From: a virus
Strand: one strand, 5' to 3'
Length of the DNA stretch: 64,000 nucleotides
IMG/VR virus record: IMGVR_UViG_3300024255_000011
Span: 1 to 64,000 of that record
This document shows positions 2 through 57,100 of this stretch, one piece after another. Within the stretch, counting starts at the first letter, position 1. Every line of letters starts with the position of its first letter. The notes below the pieces were generated by a model, which made no database searches, had not been told where the DNA came from, and worked only from the letters and a program-made list of their open reading frames with translations. A program made the translations under genes and the position numbers.

Positions 2-2068
2 CAGGACCCTCTGGTGTTGAGTGCACTGAACTTCACTGCTAAGTCAACTGAAGAGAATAACAGGACAAGATTGAAGGGTCAGGATGGAAAGGCAGACTCA
101 CAGGATAATGCGTTTACAAAGGCAGAAGTTGGTGGAATCACAACACCAGGTAATGATAACAGAGACACACAAAGTGATGCAGATAAAGCAAGAGACACCC
201 ACCTAACTGACGCTGATGCAACAAAGTGTGGTAGCAAGGCAGAGTTGGAGAGTAAGAGATCAAAATCCATAAAGAATGACCCCCAGTCTAAACAAGCACC
301 CTGGGCACAAAGCACTAATGTCCAACAGGGTGATGGGATGTGTGGGACTATTGCCCATGCACAAGAGGACATCCAGAATAAACTTCAGGAGATGATACCT
401 CCACAGATGCGCAGGTTTATATTCAATGATGGTGTATGGGATGTGGTGACTGGTGACTGGACAGATATGAATGGTATCTACGCTCAGTTGGCAACCATCA
501 TCTGTAATGAGTTGAAGATGCCCATCAACTCCTCCAAGTCATTCAAAAATGAACTGAACAGGTCACTAAGGTCTGTCCTAATAGGAACCATGCCAGATAG
601 GGATGGGTTTGCTCGCGAGAAAGCAGAGAAGGCAATGTCCATAGTGGATGACTTGTTCAATGGCATCTTCCAGAAATCATTTATTGACATCCTCTGTTCA
701 TTGATAATGAACATGCTATCTGCAATGAATAACAATGGGGATGATAAAAACAATGACAACAGACAAGGCAACAGAGGTCCTAACACAAACACCTCACTCA
801 CCAATCTAGAAGCGAGATGTATCTCTGAAACCATTGTCAATAATGTTTCTATTATGACAGAGGCTGCCCTTGAAGCGGCGTATTCCAACGCAGAAGCAAT
901 GGGAGAAAGTGGAGGATCAGATGAAACATTAGAAGGCATCTTAAGTATCCTCGGTGGACTATCCAATGTAATGATGTTCCCTATGATACAGAAGTATACA
1001 TTGAGACCGGATGTATTCAATGCAGCAGGACCTGCTTCACAGGACATCCTGACAAAAATAACAGGTTGTCGTATGGATAGAACATACAACACAGAACTGG
1101 GTGCCTTGGGTTCCCTTATGGGGTTCTCTGGTGGTGGTTCTGGTAGTAGTGGCGGTGGCGGAGGTTCAGGTTCTGATAACAGCAGAGGACTTGACAGGTA
1201 TGAGAACACAGGGTTTGGTGGAGCTCCACTAAACAATGCGAACACAGAAATGACCAATGATATGTGTGACGAAGCATATCAAATACCTTATAAGGATGGT
1301 GACCCCATTCCTGATATGGTAAACACACCCATAAACTCAGGGGACAACAACAGATTGGATGACCCATACATCAAGTTGCCTGCAGGCAATAATGGTATGG
1401 CGAAACCCATTTCACTTCCTAGTTTGGACAAACAATGTGCTAAGAACTTTATCAATGGCACACCCAACCAGGTAGTTGTTATCAGGAAAGGACTTAAGTA
1501 TTTCTTCAATAATGATAAGGATTCAAACAAAACATTCCCATCTGTATTCATCAAAGGTTATGAAGGAACTCCTGTACCAGTAGTGGATAGAGAGAGTGGA
1601 GAACTGGTAGCAATCCTAACAAATTGTAAGGCTTTCAACCCCAACTTCCCCAACGCAAATGTGAGTATCATTTCTGACAATAATGAAACTGGCATCACCA
1701 CTGATGACCCTAACTATGATGTCACATTGGGTGGTTTCTTTATCGCCAACACTGGGTTTGAATATTGTGAGCCACAAATTGAAATCATTGACAGGGACAA
1801 GGGTATCAGCACCAATGCCAGCTGTAAACTGGTTGTTGTTGAGGGTAGGATTGTTGATTACGACATCATAAATAATGGTACGGGGTTCAAGAGAATTCCA
1901 GATATCAGAATAACTGATAGTGGCGTAACCTGTAACACCAAAGGTGGGTATGGGGCTAAGTTATATCCCATTATGTCAGTGGTTGAAAGAGAAAGTAAGG
2001 CAGCCAAACAGAAATTGCCACCCGTAAATATGTCATTCTGTCCCAGCAATCAAACTAATTTTTATTAA
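2..2068 (+). CDS. Baseplate hub / gp5-associated structural protein, 5'-truncated by the window
   Basis: Frame is open from base 2 (no stop upstream of the GTG at 14). C-terminal beta module 'KLVVVEGRIVDYDIINNGTGF' is typical of cyanophage baseplate proteins. TAATG-coupled to the gp5-like gene. Confidence 0.6.
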   Translation, partial: QDPLVLSALNFTAKSTEENNRTRLKGQDGKADSQDNAFTKAEVGGITTPGNDNRDTQSDADKARDTHLTDADATKCGSKAELESKRSKSIKNDPQSKQAPWAQSTNVQQGDGMCGTIAHAQEDIQNKLQEMIPPQMRRFIFNDGVWDVVTGDWTDMNGIYAQLATIICNELKMPINSSKSFKNELNRSLRSVLIGTMPDRDGFAREKAEKAMSIVDDLFNGIFQKSFIDILCSLIMNMLSAMNNNGDDKNNDNRQGNRGPNTNTSLTNLEARCISETIVNNVSIMTEAALEAAYSNAEAMGESGGSDETLEGILSILGGLSNVMMFPMIQKYTLRPDVFNAAGPASQDILTKITGCRMDRTYNTELGALGSLMGFSGGGSGSSGGGGGSGSDNSRGLDRYENTGFGGAPLNNANTEMTNDMCDEAYQIPYKDGDPIPDMVNTPINSGDNNRLDDPYIKLPAGNNGMAKPISLPSLDKQCAKNFINGTPNQVVVIRKGLKYFFNNDKDSNKTFPSVFIKGYEGTPVPVVDRESGELVAILTNCKAFNPNFPNANVSIISDNNETGITTDDPNYDVTLGGFFIANTGFEYCEPQIEIIDRDKGISTNASCKLVVVEGRIVDYDIINNGTGFKRIPDIRITDSGVTCNTKGGYGAKLYPIMSVVERESKAAKQKLPPVNMSFCPSNQTNFY

Positions 2069-2991
2069 TGGCTCATAAAATTAAAGATGAGAGACAGGAG
2101 TATCAATTCACAGGTGGATTCACCACACCATCTGGACACTCATTTGAGTACTATGACACTCCTGATAATGAAAGGCTCGTACTTCGTCATTCCTCTGGCT
2201 CACACTTAGAGTTCAAGGCAGATGGAAGTATAATTATCAAGTCCCTTAAGGACATTCACACCCAAGGGTCCATCTTATCTACTGGTAGTGGTGACGAACA
2301 GAGTGCAGATACCACAACCACTCGTTATGACACTGACCACACCCTTGAGGTGGGTGGAACACTGAACATCAAGTGCTCTAACCTAAACATTGAAACAGGT
2401 GGTAAGACCGCAATGTTCTCTGGCACTGACTTTGAGATCAAGGCAAACAACATTATGGAGAGAGCAACAGAAGGAATCTCTGTTGAAGCATCCAAATCAA
2501 TCTACCTCGACACAAATGAATTCAAACAAAGATCCGTTACCACTCGTCAAGAAACTGGTAATAAAGAAGATGGTACTCCTGGCGGTCTTAACGTGCTTAA
2601 TGTACATGGCAACGCCGTCATACAGAACAACGACCCCCTTGGAGGTATCACCATCAGTTCCAAAGGATACCTAAACCTGGTATGTGGTGCAGAAAGAGTT
2701 GATGTCACAGGTTTCTGGGTACCCACACCATCAGCGTTAGGTATGGCAACTTACACACACTATGTGTTACCTGGGGTTGGAGTAATGAATAAATCCAAAA
2801 CACCTGGTGATTCCATGACAATTGTCAGCACTAATAACACAGAAGTTGTAGGTCTTGCTGATACTAAAACTGTAGGCACTCACCTAACAGAGACAGTAGG
2901 ACTAAACAGAGTCAGAAATGTAGGACTCAATGAAGTAGTTAACATTGGTGGACTCCAGGCGACATTTGCTAAAAAGATATTTCTAAACTAA
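2068..2991 (+). CDS. gp5: gp5-like baseplate central spike, C-terminal beta-helix part (no lysozyme domain visible)
   Basis: 'TPSGHSFEYYDTPDNERLVLRHSSGSHLEF' motif and C-terminal VG-x6 repeats (TEVVGLAD TKTVGTHL TETVGLNR VRNVGLNE). PAAR gene lies downstream. Confidence 0.8.
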   Translation: MAHKIKDERQEYQFTGGFTTPSGHSFEYYDTPDNERLVLRHSSGSHLEFKADGSIIIKSLKDIHTQGSILSTGSGDEQSADTTTTRYDTDHTLEVGGTLNIKCSNLNIETGGKTAMFSGTDFEIKANNIMERATEGISVEASKSIYLDTNEFKQRSVTTRQETGNKEDGTPGGLNVLNVHGNAVIQNNDPLGGITISSKGYLNLVCGAERVDVTGFWVPTPSALGMATYTHYVLPGVGVMNKSKTPGDSMTIVSTNNTEVVGLADTKTVGTHLTETVGLNRVRNVGLNEVVNIGGLQATFAKKIFLN

Positions 2992-3923
2992 TGACTGGAA
3001 CTCCACCTCCCGCTCCCATTGTAACAAGCGGTTTCGAATATAATATTGTCCCTGGATCTATTGCTGAATCACCAAGTGGTTCATGGACAGGAGAAACTTT
3101 CAGTGACATTCCATCTGCCATTGTGTTGAATGGGTACAGAGTGTCATCAAGATATTATGTTGAGACATGTACACCCACAACAATTGATCCCAACAATGGA
3201 GAACAACTGTATAAGTGTACAAGATCATTCCCTGCATGGGAGTTGATAAGTCAAACCCTGGTAAAATCTTCACCATCAAGACAAGTTTTTGACACAGACA
3301 CTGGTGATGAACTCTTCACATCAACTCCAGGAATTTATATTGGATGGTCTGATGAAGGTGGAATCACTGATGGCACAAAGTATGAGTATGTGAGAGTGTT
3401 TGATCAATCAGACATCTCATACATCCCAAGAGCGTCAACAATCAATCAACCAGTGATTAATAAACCCACCACCATGCCAAGTGGTCCTGAAAAATATCTT
3501 ATTGATACCATTACTTCTTTTGTTCCTGACCCCAGAGAATCAGTGGATATAACTTATCTTCTGACAACTGTGTGGAGTTTGGGTGGCGTGGAGATGACAG
3601 AAAGTATGAGTATCACACATACCTTAAGTCAAAACCTTGGTGATGTTGCAGGCAAGTTGAGGTCATACCTAGAAAGATCTTATTACAGTTACGGATTGTA
3701 TCACATTCAGTTACACGAAATGGAAGAGGAAGATTTGTATGATGATGGTGGCAATCTTGTTAGACCTGAAGCATACAAGGTACCAGTTTACAACAACAAA
3801 AAATTATTAAACTCTGTGTCACCAGTAACAACAGATGACATTCTTGGTGAAGTATTAGGTACTGATGCTGGAACTATAGAAAACCTTATTCATATGATTG
3901 ACGACTACAAATTCCCGGAGTAA
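2991..3923 (+). CDS. Hypothetical protein, probably baseplate-associated
   Basis: 310-aa ORF TAATG-coupled to gp5, lying between gp5 and PAAR. Confidence 0.6.
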   Translation: MTGTPPPAPIVTSGFEYNIVPGSIAESPSGSWTGETFSDIPSAIVLNGYRVSSRYYVETCTPTTIDPNNGEQLYKCTRSFPAWELISQTLVKSSPSRQVFDTDTGDELFTSTPGIYIGWSDEGGITDGTKYEYVRVFDQSDISYIPRASTINQPVINKPTTMPSGPEKYLIDTITSFVPDPRESVDITYLLTTVWSLGGVEMTESMSITHTLSQNLGDVAGKLRSYLERSYYSYGLYHIQLHEMEEEDLYDDGGNLVRPEAYKVPVYNNKKLLNSVSPVTTDDILGEVLGTDAGTIENLIHMIDDYKFPE

Positions 3924-5940: not shown

Positions 5941-6217
5941 TATTAAGTGATGCTAGTAGGGTTTCCATTTTAGGAATAACAAAGTCACCTGGCTCAACTA
6001 TACAATAAGCATAACCAAGAACAGTACAAAGTTTTTCCAGTGATTCTATTTCGACTTCAGTCACATGTAGAGGTTGGTCTACAGCCTCCAGTTGTACATT
6101 ATAAGTGATGGCATCATCTTTGTCAATGAACATTTGAATCATTGCGTTGCCATCACCATCAAGCGTAGCAAAGGTACCAGAATCTATATCATCAATCTTT
6201 CTGGTTAGAATAAACAT
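5912..6217 (-). CDS. Conserved cyanophage protein, DUF3110-like
   Basis: 'MFIDKDDAITYNVQLEA...CTVLGY...PGDFVIP' resembles the cyanobacterial 'FE..DDA.RY..LLEA' family. Lies between gp47 and gp46. Confidence 0.65.
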   Translation of the reverse strand: MFILTRKIDDIDSGTFATLDGDGNAMIQMFIDKDDAITYNVQLEAVDQPLHVTEVEIESLEKLCTVLGYAYCIVEPGDFVIPKMETLLASLNNDRLQDTDV

Positions 6218-7257
6218 TACACCTCCTGGGCTTCTATGTAAAGAGACTTGAGAATACCAATAACATTTGTTTTATCTACACCACCCTCCATCGCATTCAC
6301 ATAGTTGGTGAGTGTGGTAAGCGTGTCCTCTGACTCAATCTCTACATCATCATCAATTGTGAGATCCTGATTCTCAATCACCTTAAGGTCATGGACACCT
6401 GCCTCATATAATTTATCCATCAACACAGACAACTTTCTTGGTGTGGATTTCTCTACAACCAATTTCACCTGTGTGTTGGAGTACTTATTTGGGTTAATTA
6501 GTTTTGGTTTATCTTCATTATAATAAATCTTCTGGAACATTTGGTAAGGGTTCTCAATGAACTCCAGTTCCTGTGACACCATATCAAAGATGTGGAATCC
6601 TCTGGTGTCACCCTCATCATTCCAGTACAACTGGTAAGGGTTACCCAAGTAAGTTACATTACCTGATGAGTTTTTCTTATGGAAGTGTCCAGAAAATACC
6701 TTATCAAACCTGGAGAAGATCTTAGAATCTGTACCATGCTGACACTGGTAATCTCTGTTAGCATAAAATCCAGCAAGTTCTAAATGACCCCAAGCCAATG
6801 ACGCGTTGGTTGAGTCCAGTTCGTTAACAAACTCTTCTGCGTTTCCTTCGCAGATCCAGGGGATGACAAGTACGGGAACCTCATGGAAAACCGCTGTTGT
6901 TGGTCTGTCATATACTGTGACATTTTCATACTCTTGGAGGTTGAGTCCAGGAGAGTTGATAGATAAGCTCTGCTTGTAGAAGATGTCATGGTTACCTACA
7001 ATAATGTGTGTGTCAATGTTGCGAGCGGCAAGGGGGTCAAAGAATACCCTCTTTGCCCAGTCAAGTGACCAGTAGTCAATGCCTTTCCTGACGTCGAAGC
7101 AGTCGCCAAGGTGTACAACAGTGTCAATGCCACGCTCATCAAGAGCAGGAAAAAATACTTCCTCATAAAATTTCTCAAAATAATCATGGAAGATTTGGTT
7201 GCCCTTACGTACACCGAAGTGAGTGTCCGTAATAATTGCTACTTTACTACTGGACAT
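6217..7257 (-). CDS. gp47: Recombination endonuclease subunit, SbcD/Mre11-like
   Basis: Metallophosphoesterase motifs TDTHFG, HLGD, VGNHD, SGHFH, YLGNPY. Confidence 0.97.
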   Translation of the reverse strand: MSSSKVAIITDTHFGVRKGNQIFHDYFEKFYEEVFFPALDERGIDTVVHLGDCFDVRKGIDYWSLDWAKRVFFDPLAARNIDTHIIVGNHDIFYKQSLSINSPGLNLQEYENVTVYDRPTTAVFHEVPVLVIPWICEGNAEEFVNELDSTNASLAWGHLELAGFYANRDYQCQHGTDSKIFSRFDKVFSGHFHKKNSSGNVTYLGNPYQLYWNDEGDTRGFHIFDMVSQELEFIENPYQMFQKIYYNEDKPKLINPNKYSNTQVKLVVEKSTPRKLSVLMDKLYEAGVHDLKVIENQDLTIDDDVEIESEDTLTTLTNYVNAMEGGVDKTNVIGILKSLYIEAQEV

Positions 7258-7498: not shown

Positions 7499-8008
7499 TT
7501 ATGCCCTTCCAAACTTTTGGAGATAAGCTACATCCATATTATAATCGTCTTCTTCCTGTGTGTCAAGCTCCTCTCTAATCCCAGACTCAGCACCATCAGG
7601 TTGTTGAACATCTGTAGGGATCTCTTTCTCCATTGGTGTTCTCATGTCATCAGGGGTTACCTGATCCATTCTCTGCACCAGTTCATCCTTAGCTAAGATG
7701 GACAGATGATCAGCGTCCTTTTCAATTCTGATGTTCTTTTTATTATTATCTTTCTGTACTCTGCCTAAGGTGGCAGCAAGTTGTGCTTTCTGTTGTGGAT
7801 CTCCAGTGTCCACTTCACCATACACGTGCTCATGAGCACCTGTAGGATCCATCCCAGAAGCCCTGGCCAGATCTACTTTCTTTCTCTCTTGTGTGACAGG
7901 GTGCTCATAGTCATCCTCATTGGGACTCCCCACTGTAGGGGATGGTGGTTCCATTTCAGTCCCTAGAAGGCTTTCATATAAGTCCCACAGTTTGTTTAAT
8001 GGATCCAT
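7499..8008 (-). CDS. Hypothetical acidic protein, late-expressed
   Basis: 169-aa ORF with SD-like GAGGT, late promoter at 8090-8096 and a structured leader. Confidence 0.7.
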   Translation of the reverse strand: MDPLNKLWDLYESLLGTEMEPPSPTVGSPNEDDYEHPVTQERKKVDLARASGMDPTGAHEHVYGEVDTGDPQQKAQLAATLGRVQKDNNKKNIRIEKDADHLSILAKDELVQRMDQVTPDDMRTPMEKEIPTDVQQPDGAESGIREELDTQEEDDYNMDVAYLQKFGRA

Positions 8009-8092: not shown

Positions 8093-8578
8093 TTATTGCC
8101 TTCCTTGACGCTTCTGATCCACTACATCTTTGATGCTATTATATTCTGAGGAACTACCCAGTTGATCACTCTCAAAGAATTCCTCAAACCCAGATTTAGC
8201 AATAATTTTATCACAGATCTCAATCTGTTTCTTCTCTTTACCAATCCTTCTAATGAAGGCGTACCAACATACCTGTGTAAAATAAGAGAAAGGATTCTGA
8301 GACTTCTCTGGATCAAACCTGTGACAATACACCACACAATTCTCCACTGCATCCATCACCATGTCCTGTCTGTACATGTAGTTGGAGAAGTTAGGTCTCA
8401 TTGAGAGGTGCTCAGCAATGTCTAGGAAACACTTACCAATGTATCTGGGGATGATAGGTCTAGGTTGCTCAAGGTCCTTAGCCTCATCACATGCCTTTCT
8501 GAACTTTACCATTGCTGCATAGAACTCTTTATTGTCTATGAAGTTATTCTTTCTGCGCTTTGGTTTGATGTCACTCAT
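8093..8578 (-). CDS. gp55: Late-transcription sigma factor
   Basis: 'NNFIDNKEFYAAM', 'YIGKCFLDIAEHLS.RPNF.NY.Y..DMV.DAVENC', 'NPFSYFTQ...AFIRRI.KEKKQ'. Confidence 0.97.
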   Translation of the reverse strand: MSDIKPKRRKNNFIDNKEFYAAMVKFRKACDEAKDLEQPRPIIPRYIGKCFLDIAEHLSMRPNFSNYMYRQDMVMDAVENCVVYCHRFDPEKSQNPFSYFTQVCWYAFIRRIGKEKKQIEICDKIIAKSGFEEFFESDQLGSSSEYNSIKDVVDQKRQGRQ

Positions 8579-8628
8579 ATGGTCCTTTATTTGTTATTAT
8601 TATAATCCCTTTATTGAGATTAGTTAAC

Positions 8629-8694
8629 TTAACACACTTCATCATTAGTGTTATACTTGTAGTGTAACAACAAATGGGATGAGTAGCTTAGCTA
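8629..8694 (+). promoter_or_regulatory. Sigma70-type (early) promoter element, copy 1 of a duplicated 66-67 bp element
   Basis: TTAACA-17 bp-TATACT with extended -10 TG. About 88% identical to 39849-39915. Confidence 0.75.
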
Positions 8695-9116
8695 TCAGTT
8701 GATAAGTCAGGACTGCCATCAAAGATGCCCTCTAGTTTCTTTCTAAAGGAATCTATCTTATCAACAAACCCTGGATTCTTTTTGGTTTCAACCTTTCTTT
8801 TGATTGGAGAAGTTACTTTAGCAGCGATGAGAGCTTTCTCATAAAATTCAATACCGAATTTATCTAACTCTGACATCGTAACAACGTGTGTGCGATTCAC
8901 AATGGTGAGATCGTCATTAGAAAATAACATCCATCGTTTAGGAATAAGACCAGAGATTACAACTCCCTTCTCTGTGTCTATTGTAGTGTTCTCATTAATT
9001 GTTATGGGGTTAGACAATACATAAAAGTCTGTGCCATTTTCCTCTGTTGAATACACTTCTGCAAGAACTTCCTCACCAGTAATCATTTTGATTGTGGCGT
9101 GAAATGGATCTAACAT
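8688..9116 (-). CDS. Conserved T4-like hypothetical protein downstream of uvsW (Sm-like fold suspected)
   Basis: 'ATIKMITGEEVLAEV...LSNPI...PKRWMLFSNDD' pattern and position directly after uvsW. Confidence 0.7.
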   Translation of the reverse strand: MLDPFHATIKMITGEEVLAEVYSTEENGTDFYVLSNPITINENTTIDTEKGVVISGLIPKRWMLFSNDDLTIVNRTHVVTMSELDKFGIEFYEKALIAAKVTSPIKRKVETKKNPGFVDKIDSFRKKLEGIFDGSPDLSTDS

Positions 9117-10591
9117 AAATTTAAAACTCCCTCATTGGTATTTATTGCCACTTCAGAAATGCGATACTCGAAATTCTCATCACAATAATACTTGATTCTT
9201 TCTGCAAGGTGTGTCAAGGTAAAGTTATTCCTCCCTCCACTCTTTCTAAAGTCATCTGCAATATCATATAACTTTACTTTACTCTTTGACTTTGTCTTCC
9301 TCAGACCTCTGCCAATGCTCTGAAGGACACGTATACGAGACTTAGATGGAGAAGCAAAAATAACATGGTGGAGATTTTTGATATTAACACCAGTAGACAT
9401 AGTACCATAGCTACCAAGGATGATATTATTATCAGATCCTTCACACACCGAACGAACTTCCTCCCTCTTTTTAACATCCACATCTCCATGGATGAGATGA
9501 ACTGGTCTGTCAGTGATCGTATCGATAAGTTCCGCAAGTGGGATGCCATGCCCCTCCACTCTAGCGAAGAGAACCAACACGTTACCCTTGAGATCATCGG
9601 CAAGTTTGCAGATGAATTCGTTTCGTTCTTGTAGTAACCCAATTCTCTCAATCTCATCATTGTAAGTTTCGAAAACTTCTGGGGGGTGTTTGAGTTGGAT
9701 GATTTCGACTTTAAGTTTAGCAAGGAATCCCTTCTCCATTAAATCAGCAGAGGATGTGGTTTTATAAACAGGTCCAAAGTGTCCTTCTAATATTAACTTA
9801 TGAACGTTCTTTCCGTCAAGTGTACCAGTAAAACCATACCTCCACTTTGCATCAGGCATCTTCTTCATAATGCCACCCAAACACTTTGCCTTAAAGTTGT
9901 GGCACTCATCTCCTATCACCCCATCAAACTGCCTGAACCACTTCTTTTCCATACCATAGATGGATTGCCAGGTGGAAATGGTACAGGGTGCTGTGGTGTC
10001 CAGAGAGTGTCCCTGATAAATCTTATGCATATTATCCTCTTCCCAACCATAGTCCAGGAAGTCCTTATACATCTGTTCCACCAGTGACTTGGAGGGAACA
10101 ACCAACAACACTCTCTTACCAATAGACTTCAGGTATCTACAGATAGAGTAAATCATAAGAGACTTACCTGACCCTGTGGGGGACAGAATAGTCTTTCTGT
10201 GTTCCTTTAGTGCATGAAACACTGTCTCCACCTGGTACTCTCTTGGTGTTACAGAGGATATCTTATTCATAAACAACTCCACACCCTCATAGAACACCCT
10301 CTCATCCACCTCATAAGGGACTCCATAAAAAGAGTTGTCCTCAAACTCCCAAGTGTACCCATGCCTGTCTAACCACTTGCACAGTTGGTATGTGAGACCT
10401 GCTGGCATTGATTTGGTGTGAGTGGATAACAATCGCACCTTTCCATCCCAGTACTTCTTCCTGTAAGCAGGAGAAAAGGAAGCGCCCTCTACATCAAAAG
10501 AGAATGCTTCCTGTAATTCGTATAGGATGTGGGGTTCACAATCCAGAGTAATATCAATCTCGTTCTTCTTCTGAATAACGCAGTCAGTCAT
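9110..10591 (-). CDS. uvsW: UvsW SF2 RNA-DNA/DNA helicase
   Basis: SPTGSGKS, DECH, GFTGT, STGVNIKNLH, LQSIGRGLR; N-terminal 'WDGKVRL'. Confidence 0.97.
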   Translation of the reverse strand: MTDCVIQKKNEIDITLDCEPHILYELQEAFSFDVEGASFSPAYRKKYWDGKVRLLSTHTKSMPAGLTYQLCKWLDRHGYTWEFEDNSFYGVPYEVDERVFYEGVELFMNKISSVTPREYQVETVFHALKEHRKTILSPTGSGKSLMIYSICRYLKSIGKRVLLVVPSKSLVEQMYKDFLDYGWEEDNMHKIYQGHSLDTTAPCTISTWQSIYGMEKKWFRQFDGVIGDECHNFKAKCLGGIMKKMPDAKWRYGFTGTLDGKNVHKLILEGHFGPVYKTTSSADLMEKGFLAKLKVEIIQLKHPPEVFETYNDEIERIGLLQERNEFICKLADDLKGNVLVLFARVEGHGIPLAELIDTITDRPVHLIHGDVDVKKREEVRSVCEGSDNNIILGSYGTMSTGVNIKNLHHVIFASPSKSRIRVLQSIGRGLRKTKSKSKVKLYDIADDFRKSGGRNNFTLTHLAERIKYYCDENFEYRISEVAINTNEGVLNLC

Positions 10592-38983: not shown

Positions 38984-39769
38984 TTAGCCTCCGAAAAGTG
39001 TGTCGGCGTAGAGATAACCTTCGGCCAAACTGGCCTCCAGATTCCTTGCCTCAATGTGTGCAATGTAATCAGTCAATTGAGACTGAAGATTTGTGATGAT
39101 TTGTGGGTCATCTCCCAGTGCCTGTGCCAACTCATCAATAGAGTTAAGAGTTTCAGGTGCAATGTCAATGTCAAGGTTACCGATAGTCGTCTGCAAAGCA
39201 GAGATGTCAGTTGCATTCTGTGTGACATTATCAGACAACGACCCAAGGGAGGTTGTAAGACTCTGATTAACAGCGTCCACTGCTGCCTGGGTAGTTGGAT
39301 CGACTTCAAGAGCGGAAACTCTTGTGTTAATGTCTGTGATGAGATTGGGGTTATCACCCATCGCATCTGCTAACTCACTTAAGGAGTCGAGAGTGTCAGG
39401 TGCTCCACCAATGACCTCTGAAACCTTAGTGTCAACATAGGTTTTGGTGACTGGATCAATTTCCAGTACATCAATCCTGTCACTAAGTGCAGTGTCTCCT
39501 ATATTAAATGACGAAGTATTACCATCTATAGATGCCCGTAAGGCAACTCTAACGGTTTCAATAAGGGTTTCTGCATCTGTTCTGTTCTGAGAAACAATGC
39601 TTTCGAGACTTGACAGTGCACTTGCCGTGTCCGTAATAACATTAGACTTCAGGTTGTTATAACTAATCTTTCGAGATGTTCCTGTTTCCATGTCTGAGAC
39701 AAGGAACAGATCAACATCCGTAAGATCGGTTAGTGAGTTTAGCTCACTAATCTTTATGGATGCTGCCAT
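38984..39769 (-). CDS. Fibre protein
   Basis: N-term KISELNSL..DLFLVSD motif; two 'APDTLDSL.ELA.A.GD' motifs. Confidence 0.7.
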   Translation of the reverse strand: MAASIKISELNSLTDLTDVDLFLVSDMETGTSRKISYNNLKSNVITDTASALSSLESIVSQNRTDAETLIETVRVALRASIDGNTSSFNIGDTALSDRIDVLEIDPVTKTYVDTKVSEVIGGAPDTLDSLSELADAMGDNPNLITDINTRVSALEVDPTTQAAVDAVNQSLTTSLGSLSDNVTQNATDISALQTTIGNLDIDIAPETLNSIDELAQALGDDPQIITNLQSQLTDYIAHIEARNLEASLAEGYLYADTLFGG

Positions 39770-39848: not shown

Positions 39849-39915
39849 TTTACACACTACCTTATTAATGTTATACTTGTAGTGTCAACAACAAATGGGA
39901 TAACTAGCTTAGCTA
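39849..39915 (+). promoter_or_regulatory. Sigma70-type promoter element, copy 2 of the duplicated element
   Basis: TTTACA-17 bp-TATACT with extended -10 TG. About 88% identical to 8629-8694. Confidence 0.75.
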
Positions 39916-39948
39916 CCATAAATACATCACTGACACTCATCTCTCGTT

Positions 39949-40161
39949 ATGGCTATACCTAAAGGTACTAAGAGGTACCAACACTTACAAACAAAAGAGG
40001 TTAGATATTTTCGTAATCCCCCTAATCTAAATGCATGGGAAAAGATTGGAACACCAGGATCCAAGAATTGGAGATGGGTCAATAACAATTCACAAGAAAA
40101 ATATATCAGCTCGAATGACCCTATCCCTGAGGGATATTCATTGGGTCGTATGAAGGGCTAA
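39949..40161 (+). CDS. Small basic protein resembling homing-endonuclease-associated DNA-binding modules, without a nuclease domain
   Basis: 'WRWVNNNSQEKYI....PIPEGYSLGRM' motif. + strand late promoter ATAAATA at 39918-39924. Confidence 0.55.
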   Translation: MAIPKGTKRYQHLQTKEVRYFRNPPNLNAWEKIGTPGSKNWRWVNNNSQEKYISSNDPIPEGYSLGRMKG

Positions 40162-54100: not shown

Positions 54101-57100
54101 TATCCTGGACCATGAATCCATTTTGCTCTGTCAATTTTTTCTGTAATCGTCCAAGGTTCACCTCGGTTACCCCAATCCTCTTGATCTATTCTATCAGGAG
54201 CTATAGCACCAAGCAGTATCTGAGCGTCTCTATTGGCCAACTGAAATGTTCTGTAGTTTTCGTATCCAGTTCCCTTAACAAAGGTTCTTTCTGTCCACTC
54301 ACGTCTCCAAGAATCATCACCATCATTGGAAATATCAGTACCCTCTGGGTACTCTGAGACCCATAACTTCTGTTTAATTGGTGCTGGTCTCGATCTCAAC
54401 TCCTCGTAAATATTATCTTCTGGTGGAATACCATAAATTCTGTAGTATCCAGGTTGACCAACATATTGCTGACCTTTACCTGCCGACTCATGTGAAATTG
54501 GCTTAATCCAATATTCATCATTCAAGTCTGGCAGTTGACCAATACTCCAACCATATGGTTTGGTGTCAAGTACCGCGGCAGTCTGAACGTCGGAATAATA
54601 TGTGGCACCTTTGATCTCCGTTCCATCATATCCATCATAAGGATCGCCCTTAATTTTTGGTGTTACAAGTACATCAATATACTTACCCTCATTAAGTTTA
54701 CCTTCATAGTCAATACCCATGTAATTATATCCAGGTGGGTAGTATTCCCTCTTTACTTTCGATCCTTTTTTGGTGTTGTTGACCCCAAACCACTGCCAGA
54801 ATGAAGCACGCATGTACCTTTTCTTGGGTTTATACGATTTGTATCCTGTAGCGTTCCTCTTGTCGCAGTTATATCCCTCAACGGTTGGGCCTTGACTATC
54901 TCCAGCAACCCAAGGACCATCTTTAGTGCTTGCAAACCACCAAGTAATACCAAAGTCAGACGGACCTTTATGTTCGCACTTTGGTACAATGAAATTGTAA
55001 TAGATACTCATTTCATCGTCACTAAATGGCCCATAAGTATGACAAATATTAGTAGGAAGTTTGTCGTACATTGACCAATCTGGCATGGCTGCAGTACTTC
55101 CAGATGGAACACAGTACAATCCACGCCATTCTTGTGCAGTAAAATCTGGTCTATTATCATAGTAGTTGGTCACCAGAATGTCTACACCAGGTTCAGCTTC
55201 AGTGGCTACTCTGTTTCTTGCGTCGAATGTGGCAGGCTCTGGTGCTGGCCCATCATACAGTGAGTACACATCAAAATTTACACTACCATCGTGTTCGTGT
55301 CTGTCCAACACAGTGATAATTTCTTGTCCATTACTATCATATGTGCGGTATTCGCACTCTGAATATTTGAAATAGTTAGAGATTTGTCCGCCTGCATCCA
55401 TGCAAGCATCGCACCATCCGAAATGTCCTTTATTATATTGATCTGATGTGTATACAAATCCTGTTTCCAGAACTACAGCCAAAGCTCCATTGACATATCT
55501 GAACTTTGATGCTCTCTTTTCTTTTGTAACATCACGAATGAAGTTAATAAGATTCAGTTGATCGTTGTCAGTATTTCTATCAAGTAAATACTCACCAATT
55601 TGCTCAAAGTCGAAGTCTTGATTGAGTACCCTTGTGGCCTCTCTATTTCTGATGATATATCCTGTCAGAAGGTTATTGATAACCTCCCTCCAGCTGAGAT
55701 CTTCACCATTCTTAATTTTTTGAGAAATGTTATCAACAGATACAATTACTTTATGATCGTATTCTTTTTCTACACCAAGTTGTTTATTGATATAGAAGTT
55801 GGTCATATCATACAGAACAGCAAGTGCAGTATGAGTTTGTGGGTCATCAGTAATTTTGCGTGCAGATAATTTCCTAAACGATCCACGTTTGATAATTTCT
55901 TTGAGGTTAAATCCAAACTCACTAAAGTTATTTGAAATGGATTTCTGAATCGCATTGCACTTATCGATGGCATTTTGAATGATTGCCTTGTCGTGATCGT
56001 TATACTCGCCTGTCCCGCCACCTGTTGGGTCCTCTAACTCATCAAGATTGAAAGACCCAACGCCTTCGGCTTCGGGAGTTTCTGAAGGTGGTCTCCAGTC
56101 AGGCCTGTCCCCAGTAATTTCACTAATGAGCTCAATTAGAGTCATGTCCTCAAGGGCTTCCATTGCTTCTTGAAGTTTTTTGACATTAGCTTCAAGAAGA
56201 CCAGAAGAGGTGTCAATCCTATTCATTGTATAGGCAAACTTTATACCTACGTTTGATTTCGTTTCCGCAGAGACGTTATAGTGTGATCTAAAAAATCCTG
56301 ACATGCCAACGACGCCATAGTCAAGACCTTCCGTTGGTTGATTTGGATATCCCATTTGATCCCTGCCCCTACTGTTTCCAAGGACAAACACCCATTTTCG
56401 ATCCGATTCATTATCTTCATAAACCATACCAGAACCTTTCGGTTGATCGGCGAACGCATTGTTTCCACCAGGCATGGAATGGAATCCAGCTCTTAGATAT
56501 AAATCGCAGTTACTTGGGCCATTGGTCAGCTTACCAGACTGCCATTTGTCCATGGACTTATGGATAGTAGTTCCAACTCTATCCATAGCATCGACTGCAT
56601 CTTCCTTTTTATCTAAGAAAGGGTGCACCCAAATAAACTTCTTTGGTTCTGCAGTAATAAACTTAACTACCTTTTCTGGTAAGTTCAAAATCCTGTGGGG
56701 ATTCATTGGTTCATTATCAATACCATCTGGCATACCCAGTTTTACGAGTCTAACCTTGAGTGAATTCTGAGTTTGGTATCCATTTTCTGGGGCTACAGTA
56801 TAATTCTTATAATCCCATCCAGACCTATACCAGATTTCTAATCCTGGACATTCTGGAAATTGATGTATACTATCAACATTGATATTTTCTGGGCTCCAAG
56901 GTTGACTTTCATCTAGTTTAATTTGACCACCGTGACAAAAGATAACATCCCTCAATATATCACCAGGCAACCATGCTGCTTCTTCTAGTAACTCATTGAG
57001 TGTTTCTTCGTCAATATCAATGTTATCGAATATCGGGTTACTGACAGTAGACACACCACTACCTATAGTGGATACTGTGACGTCGTCTACAATTTGATAA

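Follow-up and report, generated by a model that had tools for sequence, protein, structure and literature searches.

What is a promoter for the host's transcription machinery doing at the end of a phage operon, where it has no gene of its own to transcribe and points against the genes beside it? The question is raised by positions 8629-8694 of a 64,000-nucleotide stretch of viral DNA (positions 1 to 64,000 of the IMG/VR record IMGVR_UViG_3300024255_000011; hereafter the window), which forms the start of a 108,850-bp contig with a completeness estimate of 62%. The 66-nt element located there (copy 1) recurs as a 67-nt element at positions 39849-39915 (copy 2). The initial annotation described the pair as a duplicated early promoter with a palindrome and a Met-Gly-stop minigene, and considered a replication origin, an antisense RNA module or a translated minigene system. 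The present analysis favors, with moderate confidence, the interpretation that the two copies are members of a small promoter-cassette family specific to one clade, copy 1 being an orphan early antisense promoter.

Two Copies of a Promoter Element

Alignment of the two copies confirmed seven substitutions and one 1-nt indel, the latter being a C missing after position 8665 in copy 1. The differences lie mostly in the promoter spacer, as had been noted, with five of the seven substitutions falling within the -35/spacer region. A 52-nt core (8644-8694 in copy 1 versus 39864-39915 in copy 2) is 92% identical, with an E value of 7e-13 in a blastn-short search against the whole 108,850-bp contig. 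No third copy was found in this contig either by blastn-short or by R1, a sequence-only model built from 22 copies of the element.

Both copies carry the predicted sigma-70-type promoter TTNACA-17-TGnTATACT, matching five of six positions in each hexamer and having a 17-bp spacer and the TG of an extended -10. In copy 1 the promoter (8629-8657, plus strand) comprises TTAACA, the 17-bp spacer and the TGn-extended -10 TATACT, and its hexamers and their spacing are kept at the same site in relatives. In copy 2 (39849-39877, plus strand) it reads TTTACA-17-TGnTATACT and is recognized by the R1 model with an E value of 2e-16. The predicted start of copy 1 (about 8664) and the leader shared with copy 2, TGTAGTGT(-)AAC, AACAACAAATGGGATGA and TAGCTTAGCTA, occupy positions 8658-8694 of the plus strand. 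The corresponding part of copy 2 (39878-39948, plus strand) contains the predicted start at about 39884 and a 5' leader of about 65 nt that belongs to a gene for a 70-amino-acid (aa) protein; the first 32 nt of this leader, including ATG-GGA-TAA and TAGCTTAGCTA, are common to copy 1.

Every gene around copy 1 is located on the minus strand. The element occupies a 109-nt gap between the stop codon of a gene for an Sm-like protein (8688-9116) and the start of gp55, the gene for the late sigma factor, and its -35 hexamer lies 1 bp from that of the minus-strand gp55 promoter. On the opposite strand, the leader covers the 3'-terminal codons of the Sm-like gene together with its stop codon (8688-8690). 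The description of copy 1 as a promoter without a plus-strand gene, positioned back-to-back with the gp55 promoter and directed antisense into the Sm-like/uvsW operon, was thus borne out: it faces the Sm-like gene (8688-9116) and uvsW, and the 3' end of the Sm-like gene would be the first target of transcription.

An imperfect inverted repeat over the -10 and the start, attributed to both copies in the initial annotation, is best formed in copy 1, and only because this copy has a private 1-nt deletion. The family consensus carries an extra C, GTGTCAAC, and the deletion falls at about +2 of the predicted transcript. In metagenome contigs of closely related strains, position 8665 is followed by an additional C (or an A), so that the consensus is regained; the deletion is therefore private to copy 1 of this contig.

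A Promoter Family Conserved Among Related Cyanophages

The UvsW protein encoded in the window shares 72% aa identity with those of Synechococcus phages S-B68 and S-N03 and 67% with that of S-CRM01, which identifies the window phage as a T4-like cyanomyovirus (Kyanoviridae). A megablast search of the region against cultured phages gave no match, and the relatives were reached via their proteins. An alignment of the Sm-like/gp55 intergenic region across seven relatives shows conservation, at the same place, of the plus-strand -35 (TTNACA) and of TGTTAYACTTGTAGTGTCAAC, a core made up of the extended -10, the predicted start and the first 12 transcribed bases. Neither ATG-GGA-stop nor TAGCTTAGCTA is kept in this alignment, and only the first 12 nt or so of the leader are kept across relatives.

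With up to three mismatches allowed, the core 21-mer has two sites in S-N03, four in S-H34, five in MA10 (of which terminal redundancy accounts for two), two in S-B68 and one in S-CREM2. The R1 model detects three to six sites per complete relative genome, two in the window contig and one weak site in S-CRM01. Among 50,697 cultured-phage records the element was found only in a small clade of Synechococcus phages, where it is never annotated. Nearly all sites of the family are intergenic; in two relatives, L099 and L100, the match overlaps the end of the preceding open reading frame (ORF).

Ordinary copies directly precede small early ORFs, with the ATG at +14 to +26; examples are those before gp077 and gp141 of S-H34, gp095 of S-N03, and at 54822 in S-B68 and 13613 in S-CREM2. 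Two locations depart from this arrangement. The copy at the gp55 junction is always antisense to the flanking genes, in the window as in S-N03, MA10, S-H34, S-CREM2 and, weakly, S-CRM01; about 16 IMG/VR contigs with a gp55 identity of 75% or more also have it, and sequence variants of the promoter occur in a few more. S-B68 lacks this copy, as do some marine contigs in which the junction is short and a group with about 50% gp55 identity. The copy in the tail-fiber module is antisense to the flanking structural genes in S-N03, MA10, S-H34, S-B68, S-CREM2, L099 and L100. By position, the two window copies therefore appear to be the two conserved antisense sites of the clade, and the ordinary copies, if this phage has any, would lie in the missing 38% of its genome.

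The pattern of conservation agrees with that of a promoter. Averaged over the segments in 17 antisense-site copies, information content reaches 1.78 bits for the -35 hexamer, 1.82 bits for TGn plus the -10 and 1.57 bits for +1 to +12, as against 0.78 bits for the spacer, 0.28 bits for the 20 nt upstream and 0.58 bits further downstream. The spacer is 17 or 18 bp long throughout the antisense-site alignment. Selection appears to act on the -35, the -10 and positions +1 to +12, and not on the spacer or the flanks. A working promoter leaves just such a footprint, its hexamers staying at a set distance while the sequence between them diverges freely, and an orphan kept at the same place in relatives suggests that copy 1 is probably functional.

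The objection that the element may be nothing but the consensus early promoter ahead of ordinary genes applies in part. The core does head ordinary early genes, and copy 2 seems to drive the 70-aa gene; however, the class is small, at three to six sites per genome, and distinct from the main early type. The main early promoters of this genome read TTRCAA, 29-31 bp, TATRAT and are represented by eight minus-strand copies, whose leaders have GGTAAACAAATGGGA or GGTAACCAAGGGAG immediately ahead of the start codon. These eight copies are located past the end of the window, at contig positions 100018-108616 (minus strand), with a conserved TGTAACGGTTTACAACA block upstream and no -35 box; a GGTAAMCAARGGAG leader and a small ORF come after each.

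Stem-loops overlapping the -35 occur in several relatives: in L045 and L007 (GAGGTG..CACCTC plus a T run), in L047, in L068 (with an 11-bp stem), and in the fiber-site copies of S-N03 and MA10 (GCCCTA..TAGGGC). At the gp55 junction of several relatives, a sense-strand hairpin with a T run (for example GAGGTG-TTAAGT-CACCTC-TTTTTTT) covers the antisense -35; among these relatives are L007 (junction at 2912-3020) and L006 (junction at 2906-3020). The hairpin and T run resemble an intrinsic terminator that would end the uvsW/Sm-like operon shortly ahead of the gp55 promoter, and the window phage has lost them.

Proposed Function of the Orphan Promoter

The cassette would consist of a host sigma-70-type promoter, served by the primary sigma factor (TTNACA, 17-18 bp, TGnTAYACT), together with the first 12 or so transcribed bases, TGTAGTGTCAAC. 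A short leader would follow, which in ordinary copies runs as far as the initiation codon of a small early gene. Such cassettes may have spread through intragenomic recombination in the manner of promoter-early stem-loop (PeSL) elements. The extra identity of about 30 nt between the window copies (AACAACAAATGGGAT.A.TAGCTTAGCTA) would then stem from recent intragenomic recombination or gene conversion and not from selection on a Met-Gly minigene.

Early in infection, unmodified host RNA polymerase would start at about 8664, and the resulting non-coding antisense transcription would collide or pair with transcripts of the uvsW/Sm-like operon. Early expression of uvsW and the Sm-like gene, as well as read-through into gp55, would be held down in this way, and the effect would fade once the polymerase switches to late promoters. 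T4 deliberately delays UvsW until the late period (PMC3016281). Cyanomyoviruses have their early and late genes on one strand and lack MotA and AsiA (PMC2984593), so that strand separation cannot time expression. Action of copy 1 through antisense transcription or interference is put forward tentatively and given more weight than an origin or a relic; a further third or so of the weight goes to roles that cannot be named, such as supercoiling coupling with the divergent gp55 promoter.

Several observations weigh against this proposal. No terminator-like site was found on the plus strand between 8664 and 10178, downstream of copy 1, and therefore no discrete antisense RNA can be defined. The start sites at about 8664 and 39884 are predictions. 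Neither window copy has a convincing stem-loop, the feature that defines PeSLs. In relatives, the orphans at the tail-fiber site face late genes, where early silencing would be of no obvious use, so that the interference model fits the gp55 site better. Gene conversion could also keep non-functional copies alike; the retention of the -35 across diverged spacers, on the other hand, points to selection rather than conversion.

In the one metatranscriptome containing parts of this phage (26% of the words), short contigs were found in the Sm-like gene and uvsW and none over 8621-8705; as these contigs are unstranded, they give no evidence either way on the start site. No significant RNA structure was detected in the leaders, whose folding z-scores of -0.75 to +0.88 are not those of a small RNA. 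Comparison by eye, with no formal test, of the +1 to +12 block with the NtcA motif GTA-N8-TAC, HLR1, the Pho box and the LexA site gave no convincing match.

Alternative Explanations

The same two promoters might instead initiate replication, the two orphans of host type being MotA-independent counterparts of T4 oriF (at uvsY) and oriG (at gene 34). The early transcript would stay hybridized to the template downstream of the promoter and prime the leading strand, to be removed later by UvsW; expression of the adjacent uvsW would thus shut the origins off. Their setting is suggestive, since both orphans are conserved, lack a gene and run against the surrounding genes. In the T4 record AF158101, the oriG primer RNA runs opposite to tail-fiber gene 34, and oriF is located at uvsY beside uvsW; the cyanophage sites likewise fall in the fiber module and in the uvsY-uvsW-gp55 block. 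A promoter plus an unwinding element suffices for a T4 origin, and the promoter of oriE is an early one (PMC3016281); as cyanomyoviruses lack MotA (PMC2984593), a promoter of the host type is to be expected. At the level of sequence, a pre-replicative promoter such as T4-type R-loop origins possess is present. An AT-rich unwinding element, however, is absent, the GC content of +1 to +60 being 0.40 in copy 1 and 0.38 in copy 2 versus 0.414 for the genome, which corresponds to the 27th-38th percentile of genome windows. The cumulative GC skew is monotonic through both sites, with no inflection, and follows gene orientation. Moreover, the same cassette heads ordinary early genes, window copy 2 being simply the promoter of a gene, and S-B68 has no copy at the gp55 site. 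An origin function is considered unlikely.

The orphans could also be functionless leftovers of early-gene or moron cassettes from which the gene was deleted, and be alike only through frequent gene conversion from the working copies, the phage being highly recombinogenic. Several of them still have a leader and an ATG at the normal position of the start codon, the 70-aa cassette is found on either side of the fiber-site element in different phages, and the identity of leaders within a genome shows that conversion happens. Conversion tracts, however, would homogenize the spacer as well, whereas the -35 and the 17-18 bp spacing are kept although the spacer has diverged freely. Orphans also persist at the two syntenic sites in lineages in which the identity of the Sm-like protein to that of the window is down to 53-78%. 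That they are mere relics seems rather improbable.

Even less credence, amounting to very little, is given to the possibility that the functional strand is the minus, or gene-sense, strand, and that the element acts in the mRNA or DNA ahead of gp55 and the fiber gene, as a site of regulation or processing. Both antisense copies are situated 70-100 nt upstream of the start of a minus-strand gene, at a nearly equal distance of 84-88 nt in S-N03 and S-H34, and in several relatives the -35 lies within a sense-strand terminator-like hairpin followed by a T run. Yet elsewhere the same block is used in sense orientation directly before early genes, and the conservation pattern is exactly that of a -35, 17 bp and a -10 on the plus strand. 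On the minus strand, the junction alignment shows neither a late-promoter motif nor a -10 conserved 16-18 bp away from the TTGACA of that strand.

The Shared Leader and the ATG-GGA-Stop

Past the core, antisense copies are alike within a genome and different between genomes. The window pair has AACAACAAATGGGAT.A.TAGCTTAGCTA, MA10 and S-H34 have gataagaacagtaatgattaat, with 23 nt identical, and S-N03 has ATTAATCATT blocks. Judged from these alignments, within-genome leader identity is concerted evolution, through recent duplication or conversion. An exact-pattern scan of IMG/VR for the core plus leader gave no match, so the window-specific leader is private to this phage.

ATG-GGA-TGA in copy 1, ATG-GGA-TAA in copy 2 and TAGCTTAGCTA in both are present as first described. 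The expectation that homologues would keep the minigene failed: it is absent from every other homologous copy examined. In 20 antisense-site copies of relatives, the 75-nt stretch downstream of the -10 hexamer was scanned for an ATG and the ORF that it opens. Seven of the 20 have no ATG in this stretch, including those of L034, L036, L044, L045 and L068 and the fiber-site copy of S-B68; in two the first ATG comes only at +37 (L047) or +61 (L059). The remaining copies have ORFs of 2, 4, 5, 14, 20, 28 or 54 codons. In the closest gp55-site homologues, ACAAATCAC and ACATATCC stand where the window has ACAAATGGG.

ATGGGA occupies the position of the AAGGGAG-type ribosome-binding region in the early leaders of this genome. 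Since the main early leaders carry GGTAAACAAATGGGA or GGTAACCAAGGGAG before the start codon, it is most simply read as a relic or variant of such a ribosome-binding/start region. A translated two-codon minigene resembling lambda bar, in which peptidyl-tRNA drop-off would sequester tRNA-Gly and manipulate host translation, is hardly credible: both window copies have ATG-GGA-stop, one of the two leader substitutions (TGA to TAA) keeps the stop, and the relative L058 has ATG-ACT-TAG at a similar place, but the minigene is missing from all 20 antisense-site copies of relatives, no Shine-Dalgarno motif precedes the ATG (CAACAACAA), and the agreement of the window copies, one being a recent duplicate, counts as a single observation. 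Many cyanobacterial and cyanophage genes have no Shine-Dalgarno motif, and its lack does not settle whether the minigene is translated.

TAGCTTAGCTA was considered as a conserved protein site and rejected, relatives carrying other short AT-rich palindromes at this place (AATGATTAATCATT, TAAGCTTA and AATGATCATT). Differing palindromes of this kind, about 20-35 nt after the predicted start, are found in the window (8684-8694 and 39905-39915), S-N03, MA10, L059, L060 and S-B68. Their sequences differ by phage while the palindromic character recurs; the one at the gp55 junction of the window overlaps the stop codon of the convergent Sm-like gene. From these comparisons, the minigene and the palindrome appear to be private to this phage and incidental.

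The Gene Downstream of Copy 2

Copy 2 is probably a working promoter with the 5' leader of the opposite-strand 70-aa gene (39949-40161, plus strand). This gene has 103 homologous clusters at 57-97% identity, nearly all of 69-77 aa, and is the sole plus-strand gene in this part of the minus-strand tail-fiber block. Its S-CRM01 homologue, g28, is likewise a lone opposite-strand gene, adjoining gp13, and the family always appears as a lone opposite-strand gene within the neck/tail-fiber module. The protein matched no Pfam or PHROG family even at an E value of 10. Its C-terminal W.W.NN...P.GY.LGR motif gave a weak NUMOD3 lead in a protein atlas, with a score below the reliable range; the protein may be a free-standing DNA-binding module.

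The association between this gene and the element is variable. The region upstream of the 70-aa gene is short in S-CRM01, L099, L100 and L101 and differs from that in the window. In L099 and L100, the family element is located downstream of the 70-aa cassette and is directed into the 3' end of the next minus-strand gene, immediately after the 70-aa gene in L099 and after a cassette of 70-aa and 201-aa genes in L100. The 201-aa ORF (1715-2320, plus strand, in L100) lies between the 70-aa gene and the promoter element, a position showing that the opposite-strand cassette is not limited to a single gene. L100 shares the left and right flanking genes with the window, with the order of the element and the 70-aa gene reversed; cassette and element have therefore changed places within syntenic DNA. 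At the level of gene order, the swap is consistent with the PeSL break-point model, in which the copies would mark the points where small genes are inserted, deleted or replaced between close relatives.

Genes Surrounding the Two Sites

The gp55 gene (8093-8578, minus strand) was assigned to phrog_234 with an E value of 1.8e-61. Its own sigma-70-like promoter, TTAACT-17-TATAAT, is located at 8599-8627 of the minus strand, back-to-back with copy 1, and its -10, TGTTATAAT, is kept in relatives. The Sm-like gene (8688-9116, minus strand), labeled 'methylamine utilization' in annotations, matched PF16243 (E 9e-11) and phrog_471 (E 2e-32). Its start is overlapped by uvsW (9110-10591, minus strand), which belongs to the same operon and codes for a helicase with the domains UvsW_N (PF21241), ResIII and Helicase_C.

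On the other side of gp55 are an ORF for a 169-aa protein of unknown function (7499-8008, minus strand) and gp47 (6217-7257, minus strand). A perfect TTGACA-17-TATAAT at 7538-7566 (minus strand) lies inside the annotated start of the 169-aa ORF; going by this position, either the true start of the ORF is further downstream or the site serves the next gene as an internal promoter.

Divergent from copy 2 is a tail-fiber-like gene (38984-39769, minus strand) that matches tail-fiber PHROGs. The N-terminus of its product (KISEL...) matches the 'minor tail protein' of S-N03 (BLASTP of N-termini, E 7e-5), and a family copy sits upstream of the 'minor tail protein' gene in S-N03, MA10 and S-H34.

Comparison with Known Systems

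With the lambda bar minigenes, the window copies share a two-codon ORF (start, one sense codon, stop) near a promoter; they differ in having no Shine-Dalgarno motif and no conservation in homologues, and in that both derive from one duplication. The likeness to T4 oriF and oriG consists in a pre-replicative promoter whose transcript need not encode a protein and in the comparable neighborhoods of the two cyanophage sites. The T4 origins, however, use MotA-dependent middle promoters and an AT-rich unwinding element downstream (PMC3016281), whereas the cyanophage promoters are of the host type and have no such AT-rich element.

In T4-like cyanophages, nearly all genes are located on one strand, and only a skew-predicted origin in Syn9 and the antisense RNA CfrI have been reported (PMC2984593). 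With genes on one strand and neither MotA nor AsiA, the separation of early and late expression and the start of replication are poorly known in this group. The small promoter class described here offers two precise candidate sites for either antisense timing control or origin function, and relatives carrying the orphans are in culture: S-H34, S-N03 and MA10 on Synechococcus MW02, and S-B68 on WH7803.

CfrI is a cis-antisense RNA of the cyanomyovirus S-PM2 (Millard et al., 2010, as cited in PMC2984593 and PMC5931967). As portrayed in these citing papers, it resembles the predicted copy 1 transcript in being non-coding and antisense to coding genes in a T4-like cyanophage. According to the same accounts, it is a discrete, experimentally shown RNA of about 225 nt at psbA and a homing-endonuclease gene, whereas copy 1 is located elsewhere and is a sequence-level prediction.

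The PeSL cassettes are known from the T4-type phages RB49/phi1, T4/PST and KVP40/nt-1 (Arbiol et al., 2010, PMC2839356; Comeau et al., 2014, PMC4122927), where recombination between repeated early-promoter/stem-loop modules shuffles small genes (PMC2839356, PMC4122927). A study of S-PM2 judged PeSL-mediated acquisition of ORFanage genes unlikely (PMC4503421), and PeSLs are not established in cyanomyoviruses. The cyanophage family resembles them as a set of repeated intergenic cassettes built on a strong sigma-70-like early promoter, with recombinable copies and small genes of unknown function. As in the PeSL systems, gene cassettes seem to be inserted, lost or moved beside the element, the 70-aa gene being up- or downstream of it depending on the phage, and several relatives of the window phage have a stem-loop or terminator overlapping the -35. 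PeSLs, however, form dense arrays in hyperplastic regions, whereas the cyanophage element is present in three to six copies per genome; unlike PeSLs, two of its copies are conserved orphans against flanking core genes, with conservation that runs 12 nt into the transcript. The PeSL idea would thereby be extended to cyanomyoviruses, with promoter cassettes as recombination points for small genes. The comparative interest of the family lies in a rare and strongly conserved promoter class with two backward-facing orphans at fixed places in a clade of cultured cyanophages.

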